This document shows positions 924 through 28,850 of a stretch of 64,000 nucleotides of DNA, piece after piece (position 1 is the stretch's first letter; each line of letters begins with the position of its first letter). The position numbers and the translations under genes are program-made. The notes beneath the pieces are model-generated. The model did not search any database and had not been told where the DNA came from. It worked only from the letters and a program-made list of their open reading frames with translations. Location of the stretch: positions 11,958 to 75,957 of IMG/VR virus record IMGVR_UViG_3300044940_000144; one strand, 5' to 3'. Source of the DNA: a virus.

Positions 924-1478
924 AGCGCCCCTTGCTTAGCTTGGCCTTGCGTTTTCGGAGCTCGGTTTGAGCCTGTCGAGAGGCGTACTGCGCCCAGTGC
1001 TGGGACGCAGTACAGGCCAAATAGCAGCGTTTTCCTTGCGTTTCCATCGCCCGGAATCGCCCGCCGTTTCGGCCGAGAGACTCGAACCCGCCCAGGTAAC
1101 GCTTTACCGGGTGGGGGGTAACTCCCCCGCTCGTCTCCCCTGCGCTCGCCTCGCGGCGACGCTCACGGCATGTGTGGCACCCGCCCGCTCTCTCCATTTT
1201 GCGGACGAGCCCACTCTGGGTTTTGTGCCAACTGGGGGTCGTCGCGATGGCCCCCACCGCCCCGGCGGTCCGTTGCGGCTTCCGGTATTGTCGCCCCGGA
1301 CGGCTATGGCACTCCCAGTATCGTTCCGCTGGGCACTACAGACGGCTGGCTGGGAGGAAAGGACGAGGCTACCGTCTAGGTCCGGCCTCCCATGAGCTTG
1401 CGCGTGACCCCCGTAATGCAGCCATACGGCCGAACCGTACCCGCCGGGCCTGTCACGACGCTCACTGTCATGCGCACC

Positions 1479-12214: not shown

Positions 12215-12296
12215 TGGGGGCCGAGGGAGTCGAACCCTCATGCCTTGCGGCGCCGGATTTTGAGTCCGGTGCGTATGCCAGTTCCGCCAGACCCCC
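12215..12296 (-). tRNA. tRNA-Leu(CAA), CCA not encoded
   Basis: Acceptor GGGGGTC/GGCCCCC, anticodon arm CCGGA-CTCAAAA-TCCGG, long variable arm, GAGGG-TTCGACT-CCCTC. Confidence 0.95.
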
Positions 12297-12658: not shown

Positions 12659-13201
12659 CTATGCCGTGGATTCTGCCAGTGCCGTGCGCATCGCTTTGAC
12701 GAAGCGACCATCGGAGGCGACGGACCGAGACCACTCTTTCAGAGTGGCGGTGCCATCGTCCTCACGGGACATCATCGCAGTGATCCCACGCACTTCGTCG
12801 CGGCTGGCCATCGTGATGCAGACCGCCTCGTCCTTCCAGGGCGAGTCACCGATGCTGCCGTACTGCTCGACGATGACCTGCCCGATGTCCTGTTCCGGGA
12901 CACCGGGGTATGCCGCTCGCACCTGGTCGTTGATCTGGACGAACCAGGACGACACGACCATGCCAAGGGCGATGGCCTTCGTGCCGTTGGCGAACTGCGG
13001 GATCAAGACGCGGCACAGGATCTCTTTGCCTTCCTGGCTGTTCATGAACTCCTGCGGGATCGGGAAAACGATGATCTTCATGTTCGAAGACACGACGAAC
13101 AGCACCGGGGCGATGTCATCGTCCCAGTCGGTGAACTGGCCGACGTTTTCCTCGACGCCCTTTTGGATGACCTTTTCCAGGTCGTCTAGCACGCTGGCCA
13201 T
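12659..13201 (-). CDS. hypothetical protein
   Basis: 180 aa ORF coupled to the upstream gene. Confidence 0.75.
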   Translation of the reverse strand: MASVLDDLEKVIQKGVEENVGQFTDWDDDIAPVLFVVSSNMKIIVFPIPQEFMNSQEGKEILCRVLIPQFANGTKAIALGMVVSSWFVQINDQVRAAYPGVPEQDIGQVIVEQYGSIGDSPWKDEAVCITMASRDEVRGITAMMSREDDGTATLKEWSRSVASDGRFVKAMRTALAESTA

Positions 13202-13204
13202 GGC

Positions 13205-13495
13205 CTAGAGCCTCTGGAGAAGCGTCTCGCCGTACTCGTCGACCGAGGCGAGGAACCGCTTTTCGCCGCCGACGATCGCAATGACGATCCAGGCCAGCCA
13301 CCAAACTCCGAACGTGATCAGGCCGATCACAAAGTGGAGCAGGTGGTTGACCCTGTGACCCTTCACCAGCACCGCGTCGTAGTCGTTCTGCGACTCGATG
13401 CGGGCTCCTTGGACGACCTGGGTTCTGATGACCCTGGAGAGCGCTTCCTTGCGCTGCCAAGCCGTAGCCTGCGGCCTTGGCGTGTCTGTGCTCAT
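13205..13495 (-). CDS. small membrane protein
   Basis: NHLLHFVIGLITFGVWWLAWI hydrophobic segment; shared start motif. Confidence 0.8.
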   Translation of the reverse strand: MSTDTPRPQATAWQRKEALSRVIRTQVVQGARIESQNDYDAVLVKGHRVNHLLHFVIGLITFGVWWLAWIVIAIVGGEKRFLASVDEYGETLLQRL

Positions 13496-13644
13496 GGGTG
13501 GTTCCCCCTTTATCGGTGTTCTCCAATGGCCTGGCATCCCCCGGCAGAAAGCCGGGTTATCGGTTCACGGTTCAACGGCCCGGCCAACGCCAAGCCTCCC
13601 CGCGCAGTCACGGCGTGCCCCGCCGCCATGCGAGAGCATAGCTA

Positions 13645-13691
13645 GTGCAGTGTAGTCCTAGTCCTCGTTCGCCTCCTCGGGAACGACGATC
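13645..13691. repeat. 47-bp direct repeat, copy 1
   Basis: 46/47 identical to 14664-14710; contains TACACT on the minus strand. Confidence 0.9.
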
Positions 13692-13695
13692 AATC

Positions 13696-13749
13696 GCGTT
13701 TCGTCTCTGCCGTGAGACTCATCAGGCGGGCGGCATCAGCCCGCGACGC
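13696..13749 (-). ncRNA. hammerhead ribozyme type III (canonical)
   Basis: GCGUC^GCGGGC-ugaugcc-GCCCGC CUGAUGA GUCUC-acggca-GAGAC GAAA CGC; loops complementary (UGCC/GGCA); predicted cut 13745/13744. Confidence 0.93.
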
Positions 13750-13776
13750 CGGGGGCACCGAAGTGCCCCCCGCCTT

Positions 13777-14148
13777 TTACCGGATGCCACTGACCACCCA
13801 GTCAAGCATGGCTTGGACCTGATAGTCCGGGACCAGGACCGACGCGGGCGCCGCCGACGGATTGCCGGGATCGTGGATCGTGACCAGAAGGACACGGCCC
13901 GGGTTGTCGCGGATCCACGCAAAGACCTCGGGATACTCCTTCTCCATGCTTTCTGGTGGCTGCACACTATCCGGAGCCGACAAGTCGATCTGAGTGATCT
14001 GAAGGCACTCAGACCCAAGCAGGTCTGAGATGACCGCCACCCGGGAGTCGTCATTGACTCCTTTCGACTCCCACAGCGTGGTGAGAACCAGACCGTTCTG
14101 ACCAGACGATGCGCGCTTTTCGCGCCGAGGACCGATTCGGAATCCCAT
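13777..14148 (-). CDS. hypothetical protein, distant paralog of 14161-14547
   Basis: Shared P....WI/VxxNP.R..L motif. Confidence 0.7.
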   Translation of the reverse strand: MGFRIGPRREKRASSGQNGLVLTTLWESKGVNDDSRVAVISDLLGSECLQITQIDLSAPDSVQPPESMEKEYPEVFAWIRDNPGRVLLVTIHDPGNPSAAPASVLVPDYQVQAMLDWVVSGIR

Positions 14149-14160
14149 GGATCAATCCTT

Positions 14161-14547
14161 TCATCCGGCCATGATCCAGCCGATCAGGTCCCCGAGCTTT
14201 CCGGTGACGGCATCTGCGTCCAGGAACTTGGCGGTGGAGTCCTCCAGGCGCTCGCCCTTGTGGACCCACAGGGCCGCCTCAAGCAGTTGCTTGATGTCCA
14301 GGCAGCAGACAACTTGCGTCCCGTCTCCGGCCTCGACCACCAGCATCGCCGTCCGGTTGGGGTTGGCCTTCACCCAATCGATCAGATCGGGGTGGTCGCT
14401 GATGATCTCCCGCGGAACCTGCTCGTCGTCGTCGATGCGCAGGCTGAACAGCCCCCACGAGAAGTCTCCCGTGACCTCAAGGCCGTGGGCCATGCGATCG
14501 TCGTCCGAGACCTGGGCCAGCAGCAGCGGTTTCGGTTCGTAGCTCAT
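14161..14547 (-). CDS. hypothetical protein
   Basis: AAAGGGGGAACC before ATG. Confidence 0.8.
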   Translation of the reverse strand: MSYEPKPLLLAQVSDDDRMAHGLEVTGDFSWGLFSLRIDDDEQVPREIISDHPDLIDWVKANPNRTAMLVVEAGDGTQVVCCLDIKQLLEAALWVHKGERLEDSTAKFLDADAVTGKLGDLIGWIMAG

Positions 14548-14580
14548 TGGTTCCCCCTTTCATCGGTGCGTGCACGAAAT

Positions 14581-14638
14581 GGCGTTTCGGCCCTCGATTA
14601 GGCCATCATTCAGGCCGGGGAGATACCCCGACGACGCC
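14581..14638 (-). ncRNA. hammerhead ribozyme type III with core insertions
   Basis: GGCGUC^GUCGGGG-uaucu-CCCCGGC CUGAAUGA U GGCC-uaaucgag-GGCC GAAA CGCC; predicted cut 14633/14632. Confidence 0.8.
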
Positions 14639-14663
14639 CCCGGGCGCCGGAGCGCCCGGGTTC

Positions 14664-14710
14664 GTGCAGTGTAGTCCTAGTCCTCGTTCGCCTCGTCGGG
14701 AACGACGATC
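14664..14710. repeat. 47-bp direct repeat, copy 2 (3' end of the AAA gene)
   Basis: Matches 13645-13691. Confidence 0.9.
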
Positions 14711-16218
14711 GAGCCGAACACGGTGTCGAAGCGGTCGCGCACCTGCGCGCCCTGAACCTGCGACTTGACCTGCCGGGTGACCAGCTCGCGCATGGCCAGG
14801 TCGATCGTCGGCAGACGCTCGCCCTCGCCAGCGTTCAGCATCAGCTGAAGCTGGCCGCGCAGGCCGTTGGCCGCGTTGACGAAGTCCTGCGTCGTCAGCA
14901 CGTCCGGGCGCCCGCCCGTCCGGGTGACCGCGTAGCGGACGGCCCGGTCGATCGCCTCCTTGCAGAAGGCGGGCGTGTAGCCTGACATGGCCGAGTAAAT
15001 CGCCTCGAAGTCGAGCTTTGGGGCGAGCATGTCGGCCGGTATGACCGAGCGGATCAGGTCGCAGACCCCGTCCAGGTCGAGCGCGCCGAAGTGGATGGCG
15101 GCGTCCAGACGTCCCGGACGCATCATCCCCTTGTGGATGCGGTCGGCGTGGTTGGTGGTCATGACGATCATCAGCTCGGTGCCCTTCGCGGTGATCCCGT
15201 CGAAGATGTCGAGCAGGCGGGTGACGTTGTCGGACTCCCCGTTCTGGGCGATCGTATCGACGTCCTCGAAGAACACGACGGCGGGCTGGTAGAGCCGGGC
15301 CGTCGACACCACCGTGTCCAGGTCGTCCTTGCCCGGACGGCAGTAGATAAAGGTCCAGCCCTCCTCGACCGCAACTTGCGCGGTCAGGAAGGCCGCTAGC
15401 GTCTTGCCGGTGCCGAAGTCGCCCTCCAGCAGGACGGCGCGCTTCAGCGGGACCTTCAGCTCGCGCAAGATGTCCGCGTGGCGCAGCGGGGTCCACACGT
15501 TGGCGGCCAGCTGCTCACGGACGTCTTGCGAGTAGATGACCCGGTCGGGGTCGACCCCGGTGAGGTCGATGAACTCCGGCTCGGTCTGCCCGTCGATGGC
15601 CGCGCCCTTGTAGATCGAGTTGGAGGCCAGCTCCTGCTCGACCAACTTGAACAGGCCCTCGACGTGGCCGCGGAACTTGCGCGGCGCGTCGATCACCAGC
15701 CGGAACAAGGGGCCGTAGACGTAGTCGTACTTCTCGGTCGTGTGCATCACGCCCTCGAAGATCGGCACCTTGATCTTGCCCCACGGAACCTGCTCGGTGG
15801 CGTCCACGCCGACCGAGATGGTCCGCAGCTCCGGCGGGTACTGCCCGAAGAACGAGGACTGCGCCTTCTGGTGCCCGGTCGTGCCGAAGACCCGCTTGAG
15901 GGCCTTCGACAGCGCTCGCGCGCCGTCCAGCGGCCGGTATCGGAAGATCCGGCTGAACCGGGTCTCCTCCTCCTGCTGCTCGATGTGCGACTCCAGGAAG
16001 TTGATGACCCCGCGAAGGTCGCCCCGCATCGTCTCGGGGAAGATGTACTTCTGCCCCTCGAAGTGCAGGTTGTCCTCGGTCACCAGCTGTCCGCCGAGCT
16101 TAGCAAGCGTGTCCAGCAGGTCACGCTCGATGCGCTTGGTGGACGTCGGCGTCCTGACGGTTTTCTTCGAGGACGCCGAGACGTCCTCCTCCGCGGTGGT
16201 GATCGTGTCGTCAGACAT
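14677..16218 (-). CDS. AAA+ ATPase
   Basis: GDFGTGKT, FFEDVD, TTN and RPGRLD. Confidence 0.9.
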   Translation of the reverse strand: MSDDTITTAEEDVSASSKKTVRTPTSTKRIERDLLDTLAKLGGQLVTEDNLHFEGQKYIFPETMRGDLRGVINFLESHIEQQEEETRFSRIFRYRPLDGARALSKALKRVFGTTGHQKAQSSFFGQYPPELRTISVGVDATEQVPWGKIKVPIFEGVMHTTEKYDYVYGPLFRLVIDAPRKFRGHVEGLFKLVEQELASNSIYKGAAIDGQTEPEFIDLTGVDPDRVIYSQDVREQLAANVWTPLRHADILRELKVPLKRAVLLEGDFGTGKTLAAFLTAQVAVEEGWTFIYCRPGKDDLDTVVSTARLYQPAVVFFEDVDTIAQNGESDNVTRLLDIFDGITAKGTELMIVMTTNHADRIHKGMMRPGRLDAAIHFGALDLDGVCDLIRSVIPADMLAPKLDFEAIYSAMSGYTPAFCKEAIDRAVRYAVTRTGGRPDVLTTQDFVNAANGLRGQLQLMLNAGEGERLPTIDLAMRELVTRQVKSQVQGAQVRDRFDTVFGSIVVPDEANED

Positions 16219-16255
16219 AGATTGTTCCCCCCTTTAGGGTGTCGTGTTTGCCCAG

Positions 16256-16342
16256 CCTGATGGCTGGTGAGAACCCCTGCCTTTCGCAGGAGCTCTCATC
16301 AACCACCGTCAGGGCATGGGGGTGGCTCAAGACCACCCCCAT
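16256..16342 (-). promoter_or_regulatory. two intergenic stem-loops (possible RNase III-type processing site)
   Basis: Long imperfect hairpin at 16256-16313 and a GC hairpin at 16316-16342. Confidence 0.55.
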
Positions 16343-16357
16343 ACACCCGATACAGCC

Positions 16358-16822
16358 CTAGCTGCTAAGCAGCGCTAGGGCGGCATCGACCAGCGCGATA
16401 GCCTGGTTCTCGCCGGTCAGGACATCGTCGTTGTACGCTTCCACCAGACCGCGGCCATCGCCATCGGCACGGACGAAGCCGGTGTCGATGATGGCTTGGC
16501 ACAGAGCGCGCTCGGCCTCCTTCACCGGGTCTGGCGTGGAGTCGTCGTCCATGTACGTCGCATTCGACGTATCGACTCCGGTCACCAGGCCGAGCATGCC
16601 CTCAAGGCATGCTGCGCAAAAGACATCGCCCGAGTCGGGCGTGACCTCCATCGGGTTGCGGACCGCGAACTCATGGTCCTCCCCCTCGAAGGAGCGCACG
16701 ATCAGGTAATCGTTCCTGGTCCAGGCGATCTGACTGGATTCGTACAGCTCACGAATGCGCTGGAGAATCTCCGGCGCAGATGCGTGTCGCACGCACCCGA
16801 CGATGTCGGTCGTGACGGTCAT
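16358..16822 (-). CDS. hypothetical protein
   Basis: Shared start motif; 154 aa. Confidence 0.8.
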   Translation of the reverse strand: MTVTTDIVGCVRHASAPEILQRIRELYESSQIAWTRNDYLIVRSFEGEDHEFAVRNPMEVTPDSGDVFCAACLEGMLGLVTGVDTSNATYMDDDSTPDPVKEAERALCQAIIDTGFVRADGDGRGLVEAYNDDVLTGENQAIALVDAALALLSS

Positions 16823-16893
16823 ATGTGGTTCCCCCTTGTGTGGGTTTTCGATGTCCAGCCCTTCGTTATGGGCTGGGCGGCCTAAGCCACTTT

Positions 16894-16961
16894 GGGCTAC
16901 CGCTTCCCGGACGTCGGTGACGTCCGGGATTCATGCCTGCCCAGGGCAATCGTCAGGCGGC
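16894..16961 (-). ncRNA. hammerhead-like type I element with a variant core
   Basis: GCCGC CUGACGA U UGCC-cugggca-GGCA U GAAU CCCGGACGUC..GACGUCCGGG AA GCGGU AGCCC; same scaffold as the three type I copies, with compensatory changes. Confidence 0.7.
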
Positions 16962-19229
16962 TTACCGCTGATGACGACTGACCAGATGCGCGACCGTCGC
17001 GCGCATGCCGTCCTCAGCGTTCGACACCTCACCGTCGGTAGCGGCGTCAACCACAGCGGCCTTGCCCGAGAGCACTGCCTCCATGTCGGTGTCGATGGAG
17101 TCCTGGCACAGCAGCCAGTAGACGTTCACCATCTCGGCCGTTTGACCGATCCGGTGAACCCGGTCCTCGGCCTGTCGCATGTCCTTGGGCGTCCAGCCCA
17201 GTTCCAGAAACGCGACGTGCGACGCCGCGTGCAGGGTGAACCCTGCCTGCCCGGCCATGAGGCTGACGACGATCAGCCGCGTGTCCGGGTCGTTCTGGAA
17301 CCGCTGCACGGACGCATCGTTGGCGTCGTTAGCGCCTCCGATGACCCGCACCGCGCCCGGGAAGGCCTTGTAGAGCGCCTCCTGGGCCTCGCGGTGGTGG
17401 GCGAACAGCACCAGCTTTTCATCGCTGGACTCCAGGAACTCCTTCGTCCACTCGATGGCGTCGCGCACCTTGCCTTTCGCCGCCAGGCGACGAAGGGCGG
17501 TGAGCCGCGCCAGTGCTTCCGCTTGCAGCACCCTGCCGGGGTCGTAGCCGTTGGCAAGCAGCCACGCCACGAAGTCACGTTCGGCAAGCTCGTATTCGGC
17601 CCGATTCGTCAGGTCGACGTCGATGACCGAACGTAGCTTGGGCGGCAGGTCAGGCATGACCTGAGCCTTCGTGCGCCGCACGTAGCAGGATGACCGGAGC
17701 CGCTGATTGAGCTCCTCAAGGTTCGCGGCACCGCCGTATGTCGTGCCCCACTTGCTGTAGATGGGCTCGCAATAGCGGTTCTTGAACTGCCTGGGGCCAC
17801 CGAACTCGGCGATCCGCCCCATCATCTTGAGAAGCGGGACAAGCTCCACCGGCCGGTTGACGACCGGGGTGCCCGTCAAAAGCAGGACGTTTTCGACCTG
17901 CTTGGAGAGCCACAAAAGCGCACGGGTGCGCTTTGCGTTCTCATTTTTGGCGTAGTGGGCCTCGTCCACGACGAGCATCTTGGGCTGGATCTTCGCAAGC
18001 GCTTCGATCCAGCCTGCGGGCTCGCGCGTCCGGGAGCCGGGCACGGCGTGGAGGTCTCCGAGGATGTCGTAGTTGACGATGACGACGTCCGCGTCAGCCA
18101 CCAAGCCGTAGTCCGGCTTTTTGCCCGCCAGAACGGCGATGTTCAGGCCGGGCATCCACTTGTTGATCTCGCGCTCCCAGTTCCGCTTCAGAGCGGCCGG
18201 GCACACGATGACCAACGGCGCGGCATCCAGATACCACGCCACGCCGAGAGCCTGGAGGGTTTTCCCCAGGCCCATCTCATCGGCGATGAGCACGCCGCCA
18301 GAGGCAAGCCTCTTGATGGCGTACGCGACCCCTGCCCGCTGAAAGCCGAACAGGGACTCGCCCTCGGGGCCGAAGCCGTCGAGGTCAACGACCGCATCAG
18401 TGGCCATGGATTCCTCGATCGAGGTCTCCCGGTCCGCCTGCTGATCGACGAACGAAATCGCCTCATTAGAGACGTCCCATCCGTGACGCAGGGCGTATGC
18501 GACAAGCTCCGGACCGTTCAGGGTGCTGACTTCCCAGATCCGGTTCACCTTGTTCCAGCGCCGCCCCTGCAGATTCCGAAGGAACGTAAGGTTCACTTCG
18601 AAGTCGGGGTGGCCCGGGGTCAGGTACACTGCGAAGGTCTTGCCGTCGCTGTCCAGATCAACCGCCGCAGGAACGATCTCATGCGGCGGCGGGGCCGACG
18701 CAATGTACTCGTCGGCCTTGTCGGTCAGCTTGAACGAGTGCTTCTTGGCGAACTCCGCGACTGCCGAAGCAGAACTCAGCGGAACGCGGTTGAAGCGCCC
18801 GTCCCAATGGCGACCTGGCAACGTCCGGACATCGGTAACGAGATCGGCGTCGTAGCGGAATGCGATGACGAACTCATCGCCTTCCACGTCGATCAGCTTG
18901 GACGACTGCAGAGCTTTTTCCCGAAGCACCTTGCGTCCCGTTGCCTGCATGCGCTCGCGCCCGTAGTAGGTGCTCGCGACCTGGCCCGGGGGCTCGATGG
19001 CATCAAGATTGATCCCGGCGTCGGACAGCTGACGACGGTAGTGGCGAAGCATGGAATATGCCTCCCACGTCTCCTCGTCCGACCACGTGCCCGGGTCGGA
19101 CGCTGCCAGACCGTGGCCGAACGAGGCGTCGGGCTTGGAGTACCCTTGCCCGTCCTCGGATTCGGCCCAGTCGCACCGTGACGCCAGGTAACTGGCGGCC
19201 CGATGCAGAACGGTCCTTGTATCCGTCAT
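16962..19229 (-). CDS. SNF2-family (SMARCAL1/HARP-like) helicase
   Basis: ADEMGLGKT, DEAH, LTGTP, QAEDRVHRIGQ; N-terminal GRHWDG/GRRWN repeats. Confidence 0.92.
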   Translation of the reverse strand: MTDTRTVLHRAASYLASRCDWAESEDGQGYSKPDASFGHGLAASDPGTWSDEETWEAYSMLRHYRRQLSDAGINLDAIEPPGQVASTYYGRERMQATGRKVLREKALQSSKLIDVEGDEFVIAFRYDADLVTDVRTLPGRHWDGRFNRVPLSSASAVAEFAKKHSFKLTDKADEYIASAPPPHEIVPAAVDLDSDGKTFAVYLTPGHPDFEVNLTFLRNLQGRRWNKVNRIWEVSTLNGPELVAYALRHGWDVSNEAISFVDQQADRETSIEESMATDAVVDLDGFGPEGESLFGFQRAGVAYAIKRLASGGVLIADEMGLGKTLQALGVAWYLDAAPLVIVCPAALKRNWEREINKWMPGLNIAVLAGKKPDYGLVADADVVIVNYDILGDLHAVPGSRTREPAGWIEALAKIQPKMLVVDEAHYAKNENAKRTRALLWLSKQVENVLLLTGTPVVNRPVELVPLLKMMGRIAEFGGPRQFKNRYCEPIYSKWGTTYGGAANLEELNQRLRSSCYVRRTKAQVMPDLPPKLRSVIDVDLTNRAEYELAERDFVAWLLANGYDPGRVLQAEALARLTALRRLAAKGKVRDAIEWTKEFLESSDEKLVLFAHHREAQEALYKAFPGAVRVIGGANDANDASVQRFQNDPDTRLIVVSLMAGQAGFTLHAASHVAFLELGWTPKDMRQAEDRVHRIGQTAEMVNVYWLLCQDSIDTDMEAVLSGKAAVVDAATDGEVSNAEDGMRATVAHLVSRHQR

Positions 19230-19259
19230 GGTCCCCCCTTGTTGTGGTGTACGGTAGGC

Positions 19260-19323
19260 GAGCTACCGCGACCTCCCTTTGCAGGGAGGTTTCGGCCTTG
19301 CTCAAGGGCCATCGTCAGGCGGC
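19260..19323 (-). ncRNA. hammerhead ribozyme type I with pseudoknot (B1)
   Basis: GCCGC CUGACGA U GGCC-cuugagcaa-GGCC GAAA CCUCCCU-gcaa-AGGGAGG UC^GCGGU AGCUC; predicted cut 19270/19269. Confidence 0.9.
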
Positions 19324-19341
19324 ATGTAGCTTGATTCCACT

Positions 19342-19560
19342 TCAAGAATCGTCGCCTTTCCTGAGGACGAGCCGCTGCCCCCGGCCGAGGCCGAGGGAGC
19401 ATTCGAAGTAGTCGAAGCACGCTTTGCACAGATACCCCCAGGAACCGCCAGTGGCGGGAATGCGGGCATCTGCGTATGCCTCGCCGTGGGCGGCGTCGAT
19501 GTCGCAGAACGGGATCCTCTCGACGAGGATCGTGTTCGTGGACTTGCCAGGCTCCGACAT
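19342..19560 (-). CDS. small Cys-containing phage protein
   Basis: A.ADA....GSWGYLCKACF...LGLGRGQ motif; shared start motif. Confidence 0.8.
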   Translation of the reverse strand: MSEPGKSTNTILVERIPFCDIDAAHGEAYADARIPATGGSWGYLCKACFDYFECSLGLGRGQRLVLRKGDDS

Positions 19561-19584
19561 GATTCCCCCTTTGGTGCGTTCTCC

Positions 19585-19647
19585 CGCCTCCGTGCGACTC
19601 GTCAGGCCCCGTCCTGGGGCGACGCCCCCCTAGGGGGGCGTTTCGTT
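19585..19647 (-). ncRNA. hammerhead ribozyme type II (A1)
   Basis: AAC GAAA CGCCCCCC-ua-GGGGGGCG UC^GCCCC-aggac-GGGGC CUGACGA GUCGCACGGAGGCG; predicted cut 19621/19620. Confidence 0.88.
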
Positions 19648-19654
19648 CTTGTGT

Positions 19655-20056
19655 CTAGTAGTCCGCAGGCAGCATGGCCGTGTAGAAACCGGCCTCGTTC
19701 TGGACGAACCACACCCGCTCCGACCGGTCGGGCAGCCAGGACGTCAGCAGATAGCCGTCTTGCTTGTCCTCGGTCATCACCGCCTTATCGGCGGTGACTC
19801 TCAAGACGAGCGACGCAAGCGCACGGCGCACCTGCTCCGGCATGTCCACGCCGACCGTTTTGTCGATGCACTTATCGATCTTGCCCATCAGGTGGGACGT
19901 CGCCCTGGTGACGACGCTCCGCGCCACCGGCCACGGAGCGTTTCGCAGGAACACGCCCCAATCGGTGCAGTTGATGAGCACGCCCTCGTCAAGGGCTACC
20001 TCGTCCGAGTAGAACGAATAGATGACGGGTATGTCATCGAACGGGTCGTCGGACAT
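19655..20056 (-). CDS. DUF6573-like hypothetical protein
   Basis: VIYSFY...ALDEGVL N-terminus and TAMLPADY C-terminus. Confidence 0.65.
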   Translation of the reverse strand: MSDDPFDDIPVIYSFYSDEVALDEGVLINCTDWGVFLRNAPWPVARSVVTRATSHLMGKIDKCIDKTVGVDMPEQVRRALASLVLRVTADKAVMTEDKQDGYLLTSWLPDRSERVWFVQNEAGFYTAMLPADY

Positions 20057-20105
20057 TGTTTGTCCCCCCTTTTTGGTTGTGTGCGTTCCCATAATGCAGT
20101 AGCGC

Positions 20106-20168
20106 GAGCTACCGCGACCCCCCGCCAGGGGGGGTTTCGGCCTTGCTCAAGGGCCATCGTCAGGCGGC
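20106..20168 (-). ncRNA. hammerhead ribozyme type I with pseudoknot (B2)
   Basis: Same core as B1 with a different stem III; predicted cut 20116/20115. Confidence 0.9.
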
Positions 20169-20172
20169 GTCG

Positions 20173-20442
20173 CTAAGACTCGTCCGATTGCCAGTACTCC
20201 CCGGAGTTGTGCTGGAAGACCCCCTCGGAGGTGTCAGGCACATACTCGCTCGGGTCCATCACCACGCGGGCCAGGACCTTGAAATCGCCGGAGATGTACC
20301 CGCGCTCCCGGGCCTTGCGAAGGCCCTTGAGCAGGTGCTCCACGGCGGCCTTGCCGTAGCCGTTGTGGACGTCGAAACCGTCGGCGTAGTCGCCGACGCG
20401 CTCGATGGTGACCGAGTAGCTGTACACGGTGTCGTCGCTCAC
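20173..20442 (-). CDS. hypothetical protein, paralog of 20547-20804
   Basis: GTG start after AAGGGGGGACC; SDDTVY...ARERGYISGD. Confidence 0.8.
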   Translation of the reverse strand: MSDDTVYSYSVTIERVGDYADGFDVHNGYGKAAVEHLLKGLRKARERGYISGDFKVLARVVMDPSEYVPDTSEGVFQHNSGEYWQSDES

Positions 20443-20475
20443 CCTTGGTCCCCCCTTGTGTGGTTTTTCGCTTTT

Positions 20476-20539
20476 CGCCTCCGTGCGACTCGTCAGGCCC
20501 CGTCCTGGGGCGACGCCCCCCCTAGGGAGGCGTTTCGTT
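20476..20539 (-). ncRNA. hammerhead ribozyme type II (A2)
   Basis: Same architecture as A1; predicted cut 20512/20511. Confidence 0.88.
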
Positions 20540-20546
20540 TCGCGGG

Positions 20547-20804
20547 CTACATCTTCATCCACCGGTAGCTGTCCTCGAACTGGCCCATCGCGGGCTCCAG
20601 GTAGTCGTCCGGGTCGGTGTACACCGCGCGGGACCGGACCCGGATGTCGCCAACGATGTAGCCACGGTCGCGGGCCTCTTGGAACTCCCGGAGGAGCTGC
20701 TCGGCCGCGCCCTTGGCAGTGCCGTCGTGGTGCTCGCGACCGTCCTGATCATCGCCGACCCGCACGACGTGCAGCAGGTAGCGGTAGACAGTGTCGTCGC
20801 TCAC
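20547..20804 (-). CDS. hypothetical protein, paralog of 20173-20442
   Basis: SDDTVY...ARDRGYIVGD. Confidence 0.8.
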   Translation of the reverse strand: MSDDTVYRYLLHVVRVGDDQDGREHHDGTAKGAAEQLLREFQEARDRGYIVGDIRVRSRAVYTDPDDYLEPAMGQFEDSYRWMKM

Positions 20805-20840
20805 GTTGGTTCCCCCTTCGTAGTGATGATGCAGTAGCGC

Positions 20841-20903
20841 GAGCTACCGCGACCCCCCGCCAGGGGGGGTTTCGGCCTTGCTCAAGGGCCATCGTCAGGC
20901 GGC
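20841..20903 (-). ncRNA. hammerhead ribozyme type I with pseudoknot (B3)
   Basis: Essentially identical to B2; predicted cut 20851/20850. Confidence 0.9.
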
Positions 20904-20905
20904 TT

Positions 20906-21364
20906 TTAGCGTCCGGAGCGCGCTCGGCGCCGATCCTCGTACTCGTCCACGGGGTGGCGAACGATGCGGCGCTCGTCGTCCAGGTCGTAGAGGCTGACCG
21001 GCGAGCACGCCGGGTGCCAGGTCTCGCCACCGCCGTAGGCGATGGTGTGGCCACTGGCGAACTGCTTACCGCAGGAGCGGCAGTGGCCGGGGTACCTCGC
21101 CGTTATCAGCTTGACCGGGCGGACCACGTTCTGGTCGGCCTCGCCAGCGGCGCGCACGAGCTCGCGCATCGCGGCCTCCAGGGCGGCGATGTGGCGCTTG
21201 TGCGAGGCAATCTCCTCAGCCTGACGCTCAATGACGTCGGCCATGTTGAAGATCACGTCGTCGAGCGACCTTACCTTCGCATCGACGTTGGCGAGCGCGC
21301 AGTCGACGGTGTCGAGCTTCTCAGCGAGCGACGCGACCGTCGGACGCACAACAGTAGTACCCAT
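20906..21364 (-). CDS. coiled-coil plus zinc-finger protein
   Basis: Heptad-rich N-terminus; ARYPGHCRSCG...WHPAC. Confidence 0.8.
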   Translation of the reverse strand: MGTTVVRPTVASLAEKLDTVDCALANVDAKVRSLDDVIFNMADVIERQAEEIASHKRHIAALEAAMRELVRAAGEADQNVVRPVKLITARYPGHCRSCGKQFASGHTIAYGGGETWHPACSPVSLYDLDDERRIVRHPVDEYEDRRRARSGR

Positions 21365-21391
21365 GGTTCCCCCTTGTGTGTTCCCGCTTCC

Positions 21392-21455
21392 CGCCTCCGT
21401 GCGACTCGTCAGGCCCCATCCTGGGGCGACGCCCCCAATAGAGGGGCGTTTCGTT
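21392..21455 (-). ncRNA. hammerhead ribozyme type II (A3)
   Basis: Core intact, stems I and III vary; predicted cut 21428/21427. Confidence 0.88.
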
Positions 21456-21461
21456 CGCGGG

Positions 21462-21695
21462 CTAGACGATTTTGGCGTCGTCCGGCGTGCGGCGGCGAAC
21501 CCAGACGTCGAACTGCTCGACTCCTGAGCAGTTACGGGCCTTCAGGCTGAAGCCGCTAGATGTGCCATCGCCGTAGTGAATCTTCGATAGCACGCGGCCG
21601 TCGGAGCACAGGACATAGGTCGTACTGACCCCGGATCCGTACTCGACCCGCCTACGGGCGACCTCAGTCGCGCCGCGAGCACTGATCTTCGCCAT
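21462..21695 (-). CDS. hypothetical protein
   Basis: Shared start motif; 77 aa. Confidence 0.8.
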   Translation of the reverse strand: MAKISARGATEVARRRVEYGSGVSTTYVLCSDGRVLSKIHYGDGTSSGFSLKARNCSGVEQFDVWVRRRTPDDAKIV

Positions 21696-21726
21696 CGTTC
21701 CCCCCTTGTAGTGCGTTCCCCATCAT

Positions 21727-21794
21727 CGCCTTCCGTGCGACTCATCAGGCCCCAATCCATAGGGCGACGCTCCCCTGACGGGGAGCGTTTCGTT
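21727..21794 (-). ncRNA. hammerhead ribozyme type II (A4)
   Basis: CUGAUGA core; stem III CGCUCCCC-guca-GGGGAGCG (covarying); predicted cut 21766/21765. Confidence 0.88.
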
Positions 21795-21800
21795 TAGGGA

Positions 21801-22679
21801 CTACTGACGCCGGAGCGTCTTGCGCGGCCCGCGCTTGGTCTGGACGACCTCGGGCTCGGCCTCGGCCTTCGCCTCCGGCTCGGCCTTCGCCTCCGGCTCG
21901 GTCCGGGCCCCGACGGGCTTGTTCTTGCCGTTGACCCCGACGGACACCTTGAGAGTGCCGGTGGGGTTCTCCGTCGCCGGAGCCTCGCTGACGGCCTCGG
22001 CCTTGTCCGCCGCGTGCTTCTCAGCGAACCCATCGATGACCTTCTGCAGGGCGGACTTCTCCTTGTCCAGCTCGCGAAGCTGGGACTGGTAGTCGTTCGC
22101 CTGCTGCTCGGTCTTCATGTGCTCGATGAGCGTTGACATCGCCGAGAACACGAAGATCACGTCGGACGACAGGCCGGGCATGACCCGCTCGACCGCCTGC
22201 GCGACGGCGTTGCGGAAGGGGTCGGTGACCTTCCGACGGCCGACCATGACGTCGACCTCGTACATGGCGTAGGCCATCACCATCATCCCGAACGCGAAGG
22301 CGTCGCGCGCCTTCGAGACGTGGGCGATCTTCTCCGACGCCGTCATCCGCGTCGGCCGCTGGAAGGCGCTCCCGCCGACGTGCTGGGTCAGGATCTCGAC
22401 CGCCGCCTTGAACTGGGTCGTGAGAATCTCCCGGTCCAGCTTCGGCATGTCGAGGATCGACCCGTCTTTGAACGGGTTCGCGGCCTCCTCGGCGATCGTC
22501 GCCACCACGTCGAGGAACTCGGCGAACTGGGCCGAGTTTTCGGTCGTGGTGTGCTCCGCGCCGCCGAAGACGTGCTCAATCACGTCGTCCTTGGTCATCT
22601 TGCCGATCGCGTCGAGAAGGTCGCCCTCCTCGGTGGGGATCAGGTCGACCTTGCCGGGACGCTTGTAGGACGTGCTCAT
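21801..22679 (-). CDS. hypothetical protein, first gene of the early operon
   Basis: 292 aa with a coiled coil and EAKAEP repeats; shared start motif. Confidence 0.85.
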   Translation of the reverse strand: MSTSYKRPGKVDLIPTEEGDLLDAIGKMTKDDVIEHVFGGAEHTTTENSAQFAEFLDVVATIAEEAANPFKDGSILDMPKLDREILTTQFKAAVEILTQHVGGSAFQRPTRMTASEKIAHVSKARDAFAFGMMVMAYAMYEVDVMVGRRKVTDPFRNAVAQAVERVMPGLSSDVIFVFSAMSTLIEHMKTEQQANDYQSQLRELDKEKSALQKVIDGFAEKHAADKAEAVSEAPATENPTGTLKVSVGVNGKNKPVGARTEPEAKAEPEAKAEAEPEVVQTKRGPRKTLRRQ

Positions 22680-22706
22680 GGGGTTCCCCCTTTTGGGTGT
22701 GTGTTT

Positions 22707-22772
22707 TGCCTCCGTGCGACTCGTCAGGCCCCGTCATAGGGCAACACCCCCCCGGCGGGGGGGTGTTTCGTT
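22707..22772 (-). ncRNA. hammerhead ribozyme type II (A5), GUU cleavage triplet
   Basis: GAAA CACCCCCCC..GGGGGGGUG UU^GCCC..GGGC CUGACGA G; predicted cut 22743/22742. Confidence 0.85.
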
Positions 22773-23156
22773 TGTGGACCGCCCCGAAGGACGTCCACAC
22801 ACACACACACACATAAAGGGTAGGGAACCGATATTTATCGCCTCACTGCACCCAATCCCGTCCGGGGACGGGCAGCGTGGCACGGACAGGGTCCAGTATG
22901 TACGCTGGAACCGAGTGTCGCCAGGGCAGGGGGTCCACAGGACTAACGCACGCGCACGCGTGCGTGACCCTGCATGCTGAGCCCCTCGCGAACGCGCGTC
23001 GCACGCGACGCGCGCGCCAACTTCGAGCCCTCCCTGACCTGCGACCGCCGCGCATAAGCACTCCGTGCGACGCGAGTCCAACTCGCCGCCCGCGCGACCC
23101 CGACGTTCGTGCCCGCGCGACCGCCGCAGCAACCGCGCGTCCGAAATGACACTTCC

Positions 23157-23183
23157 ATGCTAGCACCCCCCATCATGCAATGT

Positions 23184-23186
<3 letters not shown>
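23157..23186 (-). promoter_or_regulatory. strong sigma70-type promoter TTGACA-N18-(TG-c)TAGCAT
   Basis: Perfect -35 at 23181-23186; -10 at 23157-23162. Confidence 0.8.
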
Positions 23187-23599
<413 letters not shown>

Positions 23600-23614
23600 T
23601 TGCCGCCTGAGTGC

Positions 23615-23722
23615 CGGCTACCCCCCCCCGGGGGGGCCGCTACCGCCCCCCGGGGGGGCCGCTACCGCCCCCCGGGGGGGCTACCGCCACGAAGCCCCCC
23701 GCCGGGGAACCGGCGGCTACCG
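23615..23722. repeat. GCTACC repeats with C6-9/G7 palindromes
   Basis: GCTACC(G)CCCCCCGGGGGGG repeated about three times, plus further GCTACC copies. Confidence 0.85.
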
Positions 23723-24289
23723 CATGGGTGCCACCGAGCCCGTCCCGGTCTCCCAGGACAGCAAAAACACCTGGCAGTCGACCACGTCCACCGTGCGCGC
23801 GGACACGATGACGCGGGAGATTTCACGGCGCTTGATCCAACGCTTGGTGACGCTCATGCGGACGATCTGGACGTCGTCCTTCCAGGCGTGCTGATTGAGC
23901 GCGTCCATGACGAGCTTGGCGGCGTTGTCCAAGTCGGGCTTGGTCGCGTACGGATGAGGGAAGCGCTTACCGGACGCCGACAGCGCCCCGGACGACAGCG
24001 TATGCGACCCCGGACGCCGCAGGCAGACAGTGATATCGACCTCGATCGGCTTGTCCTGCCCCAAAAAACACGCCCCGGCGCGTCTCCAAGCCGTCTGGAT
24101 CATCCGTTCGGCGATCTTGGTCCGGTCGCTGGTGCGCGTGTACACGCGGCCGCTGCTGCTAATGCTGAACCGCGGCCGCTCCTTGGTCGGGGCGTAGCGG
24201 TTCGAGTAAGGGTCCTTGGTACCCGCGTTCAGCCCGCCTGGGCCGTGAATGGGGATATCGAACTGGAAGTCACTGACGAGTCTGGTCAT
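23717..24289 (-). CDS. rusA: RusA-family Holliday junction resolvase
   Basis: KERPRF, KPDLDNAAKLVMDALN, W.DD.QI. Confidence 0.9.
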   Translation of the reverse strand: MTRLVSDFQFDIPIHGPGGLNAGTKDPYSNRYAPTKERPRFSISSSGRVYTRTSDRTKIAERMIQTAWRRAGACFLGQDKPIEVDITVCLRRPGSHTLSSGALSASGKRFPHPYATKPDLDNAAKLVMDALNQHAWKDDVQIVRMSVTKRWIKRREISRVIVSARTVDVVDCQVFLLSWETGTGSVAPMR

Positions 24290-27912: not shown

Positions 27913-28850
27913 CAGAACTTGATCGACTCTGCCTGGATCAGGTTCTTGCAGTTGTCGAAGATCGACATGTCGTCGGGATCCTGGGCGTTGACCAGCGATT
28001 TCATGTCGTTGACACCGACCGCCCGCAGGATCTCGTTGACCCGGGCCTTTTCGACCCCGCCTTCGGCGCCGAGCTCGACCAGCCGCTCGTAGCGCTCCTG
28101 GCCGAGCCGCACGACGTCGAACGACGCCCGCCGGGCCTCGGGGGTGGTCGCCTGCGCAGGCGCGGGGAGCTCGCCCGTGTTGGCGAAGTGCTGGATAGCC
28201 TGCAGGACGCGATCGACGTCGCCCATCGTCAGATGGGACATGCCGCCGCCGGTCTCAGACATGATGAGCTGCTCCAGGTTCTCATCCGAGAGCCCGGCCG
28301 CCCTGGCACGGGCGCCCACCAGGCCGCGCTGCTTGTCCGAGGCGGGCCGGTTCGGGTCACGGGGGCCACTGCCATAACCGCCGCCTGCCGGGCGCACCTG
28401 TTGTGTCTCGGAGCCCGCCGGGGGAGTCCATGCGATCCCCTCGGATGCGTCGGCCTCCTCGTCGCCTGTGGCGATCATGAACAGGTTTATCAAAAAGTAC
28501 TTACGGCAGGCCGTCATGGCCTTGTTCAGGCCCTTGTCGGACCAGTCGTCGGCCTCGCCGGACCACGAGACGACGCGCTCCGAGGTGCCGTCGGTGATCG
28601 TGTATTCGACCACCACCGTGTGCCGGGTGCCGCCCCGGCTCTGGTCACCCACCGGAGTCGCCGTGTGCTCTTTCAGGTTTGGGATGATGGCGATGCCATG
28701 CTTGGCCAGATGCGGCCGGATCGCATCGCTGATGTCCGCCTCGGTGGCGAAATGCCACCCCTGCGGGTGGCGGCCCGTCTTGGGGACGCGCGTCATCGCG
28801 CCAGAGATCGCCGCGAGCTTGCCCGCAAGGCTGAGATCGTCTGTAGCCAC
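27912..28850 (-). CDS. ERF-family ssDNA annealing protein
   Basis: DKGLNKAMT..RKYFL..LF.I.TG..D signature. Confidence 0.85.
   Translation of the reverse strand: MATDDLSLAGKLAAISGAMTRVPKTGRHPQGWHFATEADISDAIRPHLAKHGIAIIPNLKEHTATPVGDQSRGGTRHTVVVEYTITDGTSERVVSWSGEADDWSDKGLNKAMTACRKYFLINLFMIATGDEEADASEGIAWTPPAGSETQQVRPAGGGYGSGPRDPNRPASDKQRGLVGARARAAGLSDENLEQLIMSETGGGMSHLTMGDVDRVLQAIQHFANTGELPAPAQATTPEARRASFDVVRLGQERYERLVELGAEGGVEKARVNEILRAVGVNDMKSLVNAQDPDDMSIFDNCKNLIQAESIKF

Follow-up and report, generated by a model that had tools for sequence, protein, structure and literature searches.

Do hammerhead ribozymes placed between phage genes act on the transcript alone, or do they also serve in the DNA as repeats between which sequence is copied and exchanged? 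The question is raised by positions 19260-21455 of a 64,000-nt window (positions 11,958-75,957 of the virus record IMGVR_UViG_3300044940_000144; all coordinates given here are window positions), which belong to an uncultured, complete hot-spring phage of ~76 kb. The record is 75,957 bp long, carries direct terminal repeats and is rated 100% complete, and the phage DNA is present in metagenome runs from hot springs and microbial mats, none of the listed runs being recorded as RNA. The initial annotation had seen in this region an array of movable cassettes whose ribozymes double as recombination repeats, a reading that is partly supported by the present analysis. In the explanation that we favor, and which we consider somewhat probable as a whole, the region is the middle of a ~9.5-kb early operon with a hammerhead at nearly every gene junction, and the hammerhead linkers both process the early transcript and act as recombination repeats, recombination being a by-product with evolutionary consequences and not a demonstrated selected function.

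About 11 hammerheads occur in the operon, all on the minus strand, nine of them of type I or II (16891-22773) and two of type III (~13695-14650). Reading the minus strand from the promoter (ribozymes are given by type and number, open reading frames, ORFs, by g-number; Table 1), a leader is followed by II.5, g292, II.4, g77, II.3, g152, I.3, g85, II.2 and g89, then by I.2, g133, II.1, g72, I.1, the SNF2 helicase gene, I.0, g154 and an AAA ATPase gene, downstream of which the two type III hammerheads lie around two small ORFs. No convincing minus-strand terminator was found within the array. That hammerheads can lie in clusters among the genes of phages was described in 2011 (Perreault et al., PMC3088659), and the present arrangement has the defining features of such clusters, with several hammerheads of the same orientation flanking single genes in a phage transcription unit that has one promoter upstream. 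As in the prophage clusters of the 2011 study, the genes in between are small and of inconstant identity; unlike them, types I and II alternate here and type III stands in the same operon.

The type I copies I.1-I.3, lettered B in the initial annotation (A being the type II copies II.1-II.3), all have the CUGACGA box, GAAA, the A15.1-U16.1 pair and C17, plus an extra U between A9 and stem II that recurs in all 64 IMG/VR instances of the pattern; in I.1 the cut is predicted after the C at 19270. They found no match in Rfam 15 even at E<=10. The core pattern CUGACGA-U-GGCC-N9-GGCC-GAAAC is present in 61 IMG/VR contigs, and a covariance model (CM R1) was built from 42 distinct IMG/VR copies alone, independently of the focal ones. 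In the alignment of these 42 copies all three stems (I, II and III) covary strongly, as does a pseudoknot that loop II forms with the tail, with 92.2% of cells paired vs. 83.1% in shuffles, nine pairs changed on both sides, and observed values that were reached by none of 500 shuffles. Scored with CM R1, I.1-I.3 gave 56.6-58.1 bits (E ~1e-14) in the three-helix, stem-I-open form. The pseudoknot, GGC:GCC in the family and paired in 82% of cells, reads GAGC:GCUC in the sequences of the focal copies and GGGC:GCCC in that of I.0, a variant that departs from the core in its U15.1-A16.1 pair and in which the junction at stem II is altered. In type I, each predicted 3' cleavage product begins with a hairpin of 7-8 bp (19230-19269, 20076-20115, 20811-20850), which includes the first nucleotide of the product and re-uses the 3' strand of stem I; that of I.2 has 8 bp and a predicted energy of -13.4 kcal/mol, and IMG/VR relatives are able to form a similar GCGGG-AGCCA-CCCGC hairpin. 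Such a hairpin might hold the RNA in its cleaved state and shield the 5'-OH end.

A search with CM R1 retrieved 93 hammerheads in the 61 IMG/VR loci selected by the core pattern, among them arrays of 3-5 copies with one-gene spacing. One array (L052:2680-6311) has five type I hammerheads at this spacing, no two of which share more than 16 nt of exact match, and in another (L060:2011-4223) five copies alternate between two stem II variants (a-b-a-b-b).

The five type II copies scored 26.5-33.0 bits against Rfam Hammerhead_II (RF02276) when reported by E-value and did not reach the gathering score of 37; at gathering thresholds the Rfam hits in the window were limited to a tRNA and an EGFOA RNA. 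Nonetheless, their core (CUGANGA box, GAAA, A15.1-U16.1 pair and H17) is complete and invariant in 5/5 copies, stems I and III are loop-closed and stem II is open, and the proposed pairs are formed in 98.8% of cells, with two compensatory double changes in stem III. Stem II is invariant and 2 bp long, as is common in type II (PMC3088659), and this shortness, together with the type I pseudoknot of loop II and 3' tail, is shared with the 2011 clusters. Unlike those, type II here has no clear pseudoknot of at least 4 bp between loop I and the tail, which is the majority form (PMC3088659): by eye, at most a 3-bp GAY:GUC pairing can be drawn, while the invariant tail CGC-ACGGAG-GCG can instead form a 3-bp mini-hairpin. 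Scans of viral, genome and metagenome collections for the tail motif gave only chance or coding matches. Because the cores are complete, the stems compensated or covarying and the CM R1 scores high, we take both the type I and the type II motifs as genuine members of the hammerhead family, and their self-cleavage as probable. On the plus strand, at 19621-19642 and 22743-22767, the antisense of the type II stem III is followed by GTTTCGTT and has a terminator-like score, so that it could damp antisense transcription.

The repeats described by the initial annotation were recovered by self-blastn. I.2 and I.3 are 100% identical over 75 bp (20094-20168 = 20829-20903), the three type II copies are 92-97% identical (II.1/II.2 96.9% over 64 bp, II.1/II.3 94.1% over 68 bp, II.2/II.3 91.9% over 74 bp), and I.1 has only a 36-bp exact core in common with I.2 and I.3. 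The alternation of the two types is likewise real, running I, II, I, II, I, II across the six successive junctions of 19260-21455 on the minus strand; it ends outside this range, the order on the plus strand being I.0, I.1, II.1, I.2, II.2, I.3, II.3, II.4, II.5. The ORFs g89 and g85, rightly called diverged paralogs (51% identity over 69 amino acids, E 6e-22), are the sole paralog pair of the array and do not match each other at the DNA level.

The evidence for copying at the DNA level lies in the positions that the ribozyme leaves free. I.1 has the core and the 3' strand of I.2 and I.3 with a different, fully compensated stem III, and stem III is hypervariable across the IMG/VR type I family; its identity is therefore not needed for function. 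The identity of I.2 and I.3 at such unconstrained positions consequently points to recent DNA copying or gene conversion between the junctions. Since the two copies flank the block g85-II.2-g89, whose paralogs stand at 51% without a DNA match, they would have been copied or homogenized long after g85 and g89 diverged. The intergenic region of II.2 (20443-20549) resembles that of II.3 throughout, starting with the stop codon upstream (UAGCCCGCGAAC) and reaching as far as the ribosome-binding leader, and the ORFs behind the two are unrelated. The repeated unit is a linker, made up of stop codon, ribozyme, leader and ribosome-binding site, and not a ribozyme plus ORF. The modular cassette of the initial annotation (ribozyme, start motif and ORF) holds insofar as the linker is repeated before unrelated ORFs, and fails insofar as the ORFs are not part of the repeat. 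Linker DNA was, on this comparison of copies, probably copied or converted recently between junctions of this phage.

The same likeness could come from RNA function alone, if selection on ribozyme, pseudoknot and 5' hairpin, added to old local duplications, had kept the copies alike and recombination were of no note. The 75-bp repeat is a functional RNA unit with which the exact I.2/I.3 tract coincides, so selection may contribute to its identity; the cores are invariant, no deletion variants were seen in contigs, and gene depth is uniform. Yet variation is tolerated in stem III and its loop, as I.1 and the 42 IMG/VR copies show, and I.2 and I.3 are identical there beside paralogs at 51%, while the likeness of II.2 and II.3 extends over an unstructured leader and the flank. 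An explanation by RNA function only is unlikely on these grounds, albeit one to be taken seriously.

If linkers are copied, a means of pairing them should be at hand. An ERF annealase is encoded by the phage, as had been claimed; the "HARP-like helicase" claimed with it is a helicase of the SNF2 family in which no HARP domain was detected, PF07443 being carried by some homologs of this protein. Exact tracts of 25-75 bp are found in 9/36 linker pairs, and in adjacent linker pairs the exact matches are of 13 bp or less in 8/8. According to published work, Redβ needs a perfectly matched stretch of at least 23-27 bp for pairing and RecA one of 31-34 bp, and a phage Erf performs as well as Redβ whether the substrates are identical or only 78% identical (PMC3945230). 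Because the exact tracts exceed the Redβ-type minimum and ERF is encoded, it is a reasonable inference that the linkers are able to serve as recombination substrates. As De Paepe et al. (2014, PMC3945230) note, repeats are as a rule absent from the genomes of phages. In that one short sequence recurs where unrelated genes meet, and its exact tracts are longer than the least that an annealase needs, the array resembles the linker sequences of modular phage mosaicism (De Paepe et al., 2014, PMC3945230), which are short conserved borders common to unrelated modules, and the Rad52-like relaxed recombination described there, for which an ERF-type annealase is present here. It differs from those linkers in that the borders are predicted functional-type ribozymes repeated within one genome, and that exchange at them is, for this phage, a proposal.

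The array also recalls integron cassettes, with promoterless small ORFs, structured repeats in between and one promoter upstream, and this cassette-like look, in particular the hairpin-forming repeats between promoterless ORFs, might suggest site-specific or RNA-mediated mobility, by integron-like capture at the hairpins or by retro-insertion of ribozyme-bounded RNAs. Unlike integrons, it has no integrase, its repeats are ribozymes and not attC sites, and any recombination would be homologous and not site-specific. The complete genome contains no tyrosine recombinase (PF00589; the control was positive in 14/14 genomes) and no reverse transcriptase, and both forms of mobility are for this reason so improbable that we give them hardly any weight.

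The initial annotation had proposed to compare gene content between ribozymes in related genomes. Because the type I subfamily is common to many IMG/VR phages, the question of gene exchange was put to these, and in such other lineages the comparison brought out mosaic junctions and the gain or loss of single genes at hammerheads. One upstream gene end (U1) is followed, across the conserved core, by one downstream block (D1) in L019 and L036 and by another (D2) in L021, L039 and others, and a related form of it precedes a third module in L010 and loci like it. Behind a different upstream sequence D1 recurs in L027, as does D2 behind yet another in L069, so that the combinations U1-D1, U1-D2, U2-D1 and U3-D2 meet reticulately at the ribozyme core. 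L009 has an insert of 296 nt, made of a 65-codon ORF and a second hammerhead identical over 75 nt, which L051 and L018 lack, and the flanks of the insert are 95-98% identical to L051; L048 and L061 present the same presence/absence difference with a different stem III.

Over all loci, 45/437 de-replicated breakpoints lay within 15 nt of a hammerhead, vs. 1.8% of positions. Junctions were compared in 40 de-replicated loci; the statistics are approximate, the ORF calls being crude and the loci not fully independent. A breakpoint was present in 21/46 (46%) hammerhead junctions vs. 72/420 (17%) of all others (odds ratio 4.1, p 4.6e-5), vs. 34/163 (21%) of the other junctions within 1.5 kb of a hammerhead (odds ratio 3.2, p 0.0012) and, where the intergenic gap was 60-300 nt, in 12/25 (48%) vs. 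26/160 (16%; odds ratio 4.8, p 8e-4). Breakpoints cluster at the 5' edge of the ribozyme, at the border of core and stem III, and just after the 3' tail. These positions fit crossovers inside the conserved parts or at their edges, and also fit ribozymes traveling with one neighboring gene. The gain, loss and exchange of cassettes at hammerhead linkers is apparent, from aligned loci, in these other lineages only.

The second of these fits would suit a moron-like acquisition, in which small genes arrived by illegitimate recombination, each with its own ribozyme-leader, and the ribozymes mark the borders as passengers. Many of the IMG/VR breakpoints do lie just 3' of the hammerhead and not inside it, L065 has an insert of 555 nt directly after a hammerhead with no second copy, and in the focal phage a 47-bp repeat that is not a ribozyme stands on either side of the type III cassette (13645-14710). 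Passengers would account less well for the breakpoints that fall on the 5' edge or where the core borders stem III, for a single core that stands between varying upstream and downstream blocks in every combination seen, or for the identical flanking copies of L009 and of this phage, and we judge such an origin improbable. The type III cassette merits a description of its own: the 47-bp direct repeat (13645-13691 = 14664-14710, one mismatch), the first copy of which is the 3' end of the AAA ATPase gene, encloses a hairpin, a type III hammerhead (CUGAAUGA core), two small ORFs, a second hairpin and a second type III hammerhead, and the whole looks like a cassette inserted beside the ribozymes via a non-ribozyme repeat.

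For the phage itself, the closest protein relative of the helicase (70% identity) comes from a contig of 1.9 kb and those that rank after it have 41-43% identity, IMG/VR relatives of the helicase are at most 33% identical and without ribozyme arrays, and tblastn of the helicase against known phages gave nothing above ~35% identity. Megablast of 16000-24000 against INPHARED phages gave no match, and g85/g89 and g292 have no relatives in IMG/VR. In the Logan contigs of the probable source run, breaks occur at I.1, II.1, I.2, II.2, I.3 and the 47-bp repeat, as expected at k=31. Since contigs of this kind break at every repeat, the 75-bp repeat or the gene order might be a mis-join of the metagenome assembly. 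This is highly improbable: all segments have a similar depth (29-39), I.2/I.3 is the only fully ambiguous node, the reported order is, by reasoning on the segments, the sole path that uses each of them once, and the terminal repeats and completeness rating speak for an intact genome.

In a sister run of the same sample (X3), a single contig, of depth 3.1, connects 13782 with 16919 across 32 letters of other sequence. On the minus strand it passes with hardly any spacing from an I.0-like hammerhead to the hairpin and the type III hammerhead of ~13765, skipping 3.1 kb of genes. It suggests a co-occurring relative that lacks the intervening genes and, as a single low-depth record, is to be taken as a lead. 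Other contig joints were dismissed as spurious, their sides being short. Low-depth X3 contigs at 16771-16864, 20619-20715 and 21274-21361 differ from the phage in hardly anything but C>T or G>A changes that occur in clusters (for instance, 13 C>T within 94 nt) and resemble strand-biased deamination or hypermutation, or a library artefact.

Several observations weigh against recombination at the linkers. The searches yielded no relative of this phage whose gene context could be used, the source-run contigs have a uniform depth (29-39), and no same-type joint from ribozyme to ribozyme was seen in Logan contigs, where rare variants cannot show. The exact 75-bp tract stops 2 nt past the predicted functional 5' hairpin, and strong selection at the RNA level could explain part of the I.2/I.3 identity. 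The enrichment of breakpoints rests on crude ORF calls and partly redundant loci, and with a narrower matching of gaps (35-40% vs. 19%, odds ratio 2.3-2.8, p 0.09-0.2) it loses significance. The avoidance of like repeats at adjacent junctions is marginal, random orderings doing as well in 3.9% (sum) or 5.2% (maximum) of permutations, and is absent in other phage arrays; "adjacent repeats avoided" was rejected as a general rule, other arrays showing the opposite.

Under the explanation by a double role of the linkers, a long early transcript would be made from which each ribozyme, as its intact core suggests, cuts itself during transcription. Cleavage would leave gene-sized mRNAs whose 5' ends start with a hairpin and whose 3' ends finish in a GC-rich stem III. 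The proposal of 2011 was likewise that a long transcript is processed into gene-length mRNAs, with no role in DNA recombination proposed (PMC3088659); a role in single-gene mRNA processing follows it and fits the anatomy of the predicted RNAs. At the DNA level the junction linkers would be dispersed direct repeats and, with the ERF annealase, substrates for gene conversion; between same-type copies the outcome would be deletion or duplication of the blocks that they enclose (735, 891 and 916 bp), and shared linkers would allow gene blocks to be exchanged with co-infecting relatives that carry the same ones. A stronger version, in which the linkers drive cassette exchange, annealase crossovers in the ribozyme core inserting, deleting or swapping genes between co-infecting phages, and RNA insulator and recombination site are one co-selected element, can be put forward only tentatively. 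Expression of each swapped gene would remain correct, its mRNA ends being reset by the ribozyme.

The idea of the initial annotation that self-cleavage makes the 5' end of each gene independent of its context, as a natural insulator would, fits the predicted RNA ends. RiboJ is a synthetic ribozyme insulator, and as in RiboJ a hammerhead and then a hairpin stand upstream of the ribosome-binding site, where predicted cleavage would give the same defined 5' end to every gene; unlike RiboJ, the elements are natural, of several topologies, and read here from sequence.

Table 1. Ribozymes, genes and other features of the operon and of the window (window positions).
Feature	Position	Strand	Remarks
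tRNA gene	12215-12296	-	53.6 bits
EGFOA RNA motif	1074-1225	-	47.5 bits
Type I variant I.0	16891..16963	-	CM R1 35.1 bits, E 4.8e-8
SNF2-family helicase gene	16962..19229	-	PF00176, E 8.7e-40
Type I hammerhead I.1 (B1)	19257..19325	-	CM R1 58.1 bits, E 7.7e-15; upstream of SNF2 helicase gene
ORF g72	19342..19560	-	no family match
Type II hammerhead II.1 (A1)	19589..19648	-	Rfam RF02276 31.4 bits; predicted cut after C at 19621
ORF g133	19655..20056	-	no family match
Type I hammerhead I.2	20103-20170 (20094..20170 including 5'-terminal hairpin of 3' product)	-	CM R1 56.6 bits
ORF g89	20173..20442	-	paralog of g85
Type II hammerhead II.2 (A2)	20480..20540	-	Rfam 28.6 bits
ORF g85	20547..20804	-	paralog of g89
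Type I hammerhead I.3	20838-20905 (20829..20905 including second copy of 75-bp repeat, 20829-20903)	-	CM R1 57.0 bits
ORF g152	20906..21364	-	weak coiled-coil matches only
Type II hammerhead II.3 (A3)	21396..21456	-	Rfam 33.0 bits
Type II hammerhead II.4	21732..21795	-	Rfam 32.2 bits; most diverged type II copy; beyond range of initial annotation
Type II hammerhead II.5	22711..22773	-	Rfam 26.5 bits; first ribozyme of operon
Sigma-70-like promoter, TTGACA-18-TAGCAT	23157..23186	-	sole promoter-like site in 13000-23700
ERF-family single-strand annealing protein (extent of domain match)	28446..28823	-	PF04404, 48.9 bits, cut-off 25

Directly upstream of the only promoter-like site of the operon, at 23186-23681, a ~400-bp imperfect tandem tract of GCCAGCC/GCGAGCC units is followed by three 22-nt repeats (CCGCTACCGCCCCCCGGGGGGG), possibly an origin or a regulator-binding array.

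Taken by itself, the locus is a modest result: it adds a new example, unusually rich, to a layout already known, and bears internal signs that DNA was copied from one junction to another. A literature search, incomplete in its coverage, returned no paper proposing hammerheads as recombination joints in phages. The role of the many phage hammerheads has been open since 2011, and recombination at hammerhead linkers, if true, would explain why the genes between clustered hammerheads are "not constant" and how small accessory genes move between phages without loss of expression. The idea offers a concrete, testable mechanism for mosaicism in early regions, and the linkers would be a natural counterpart to engineered ribozyme insulators.

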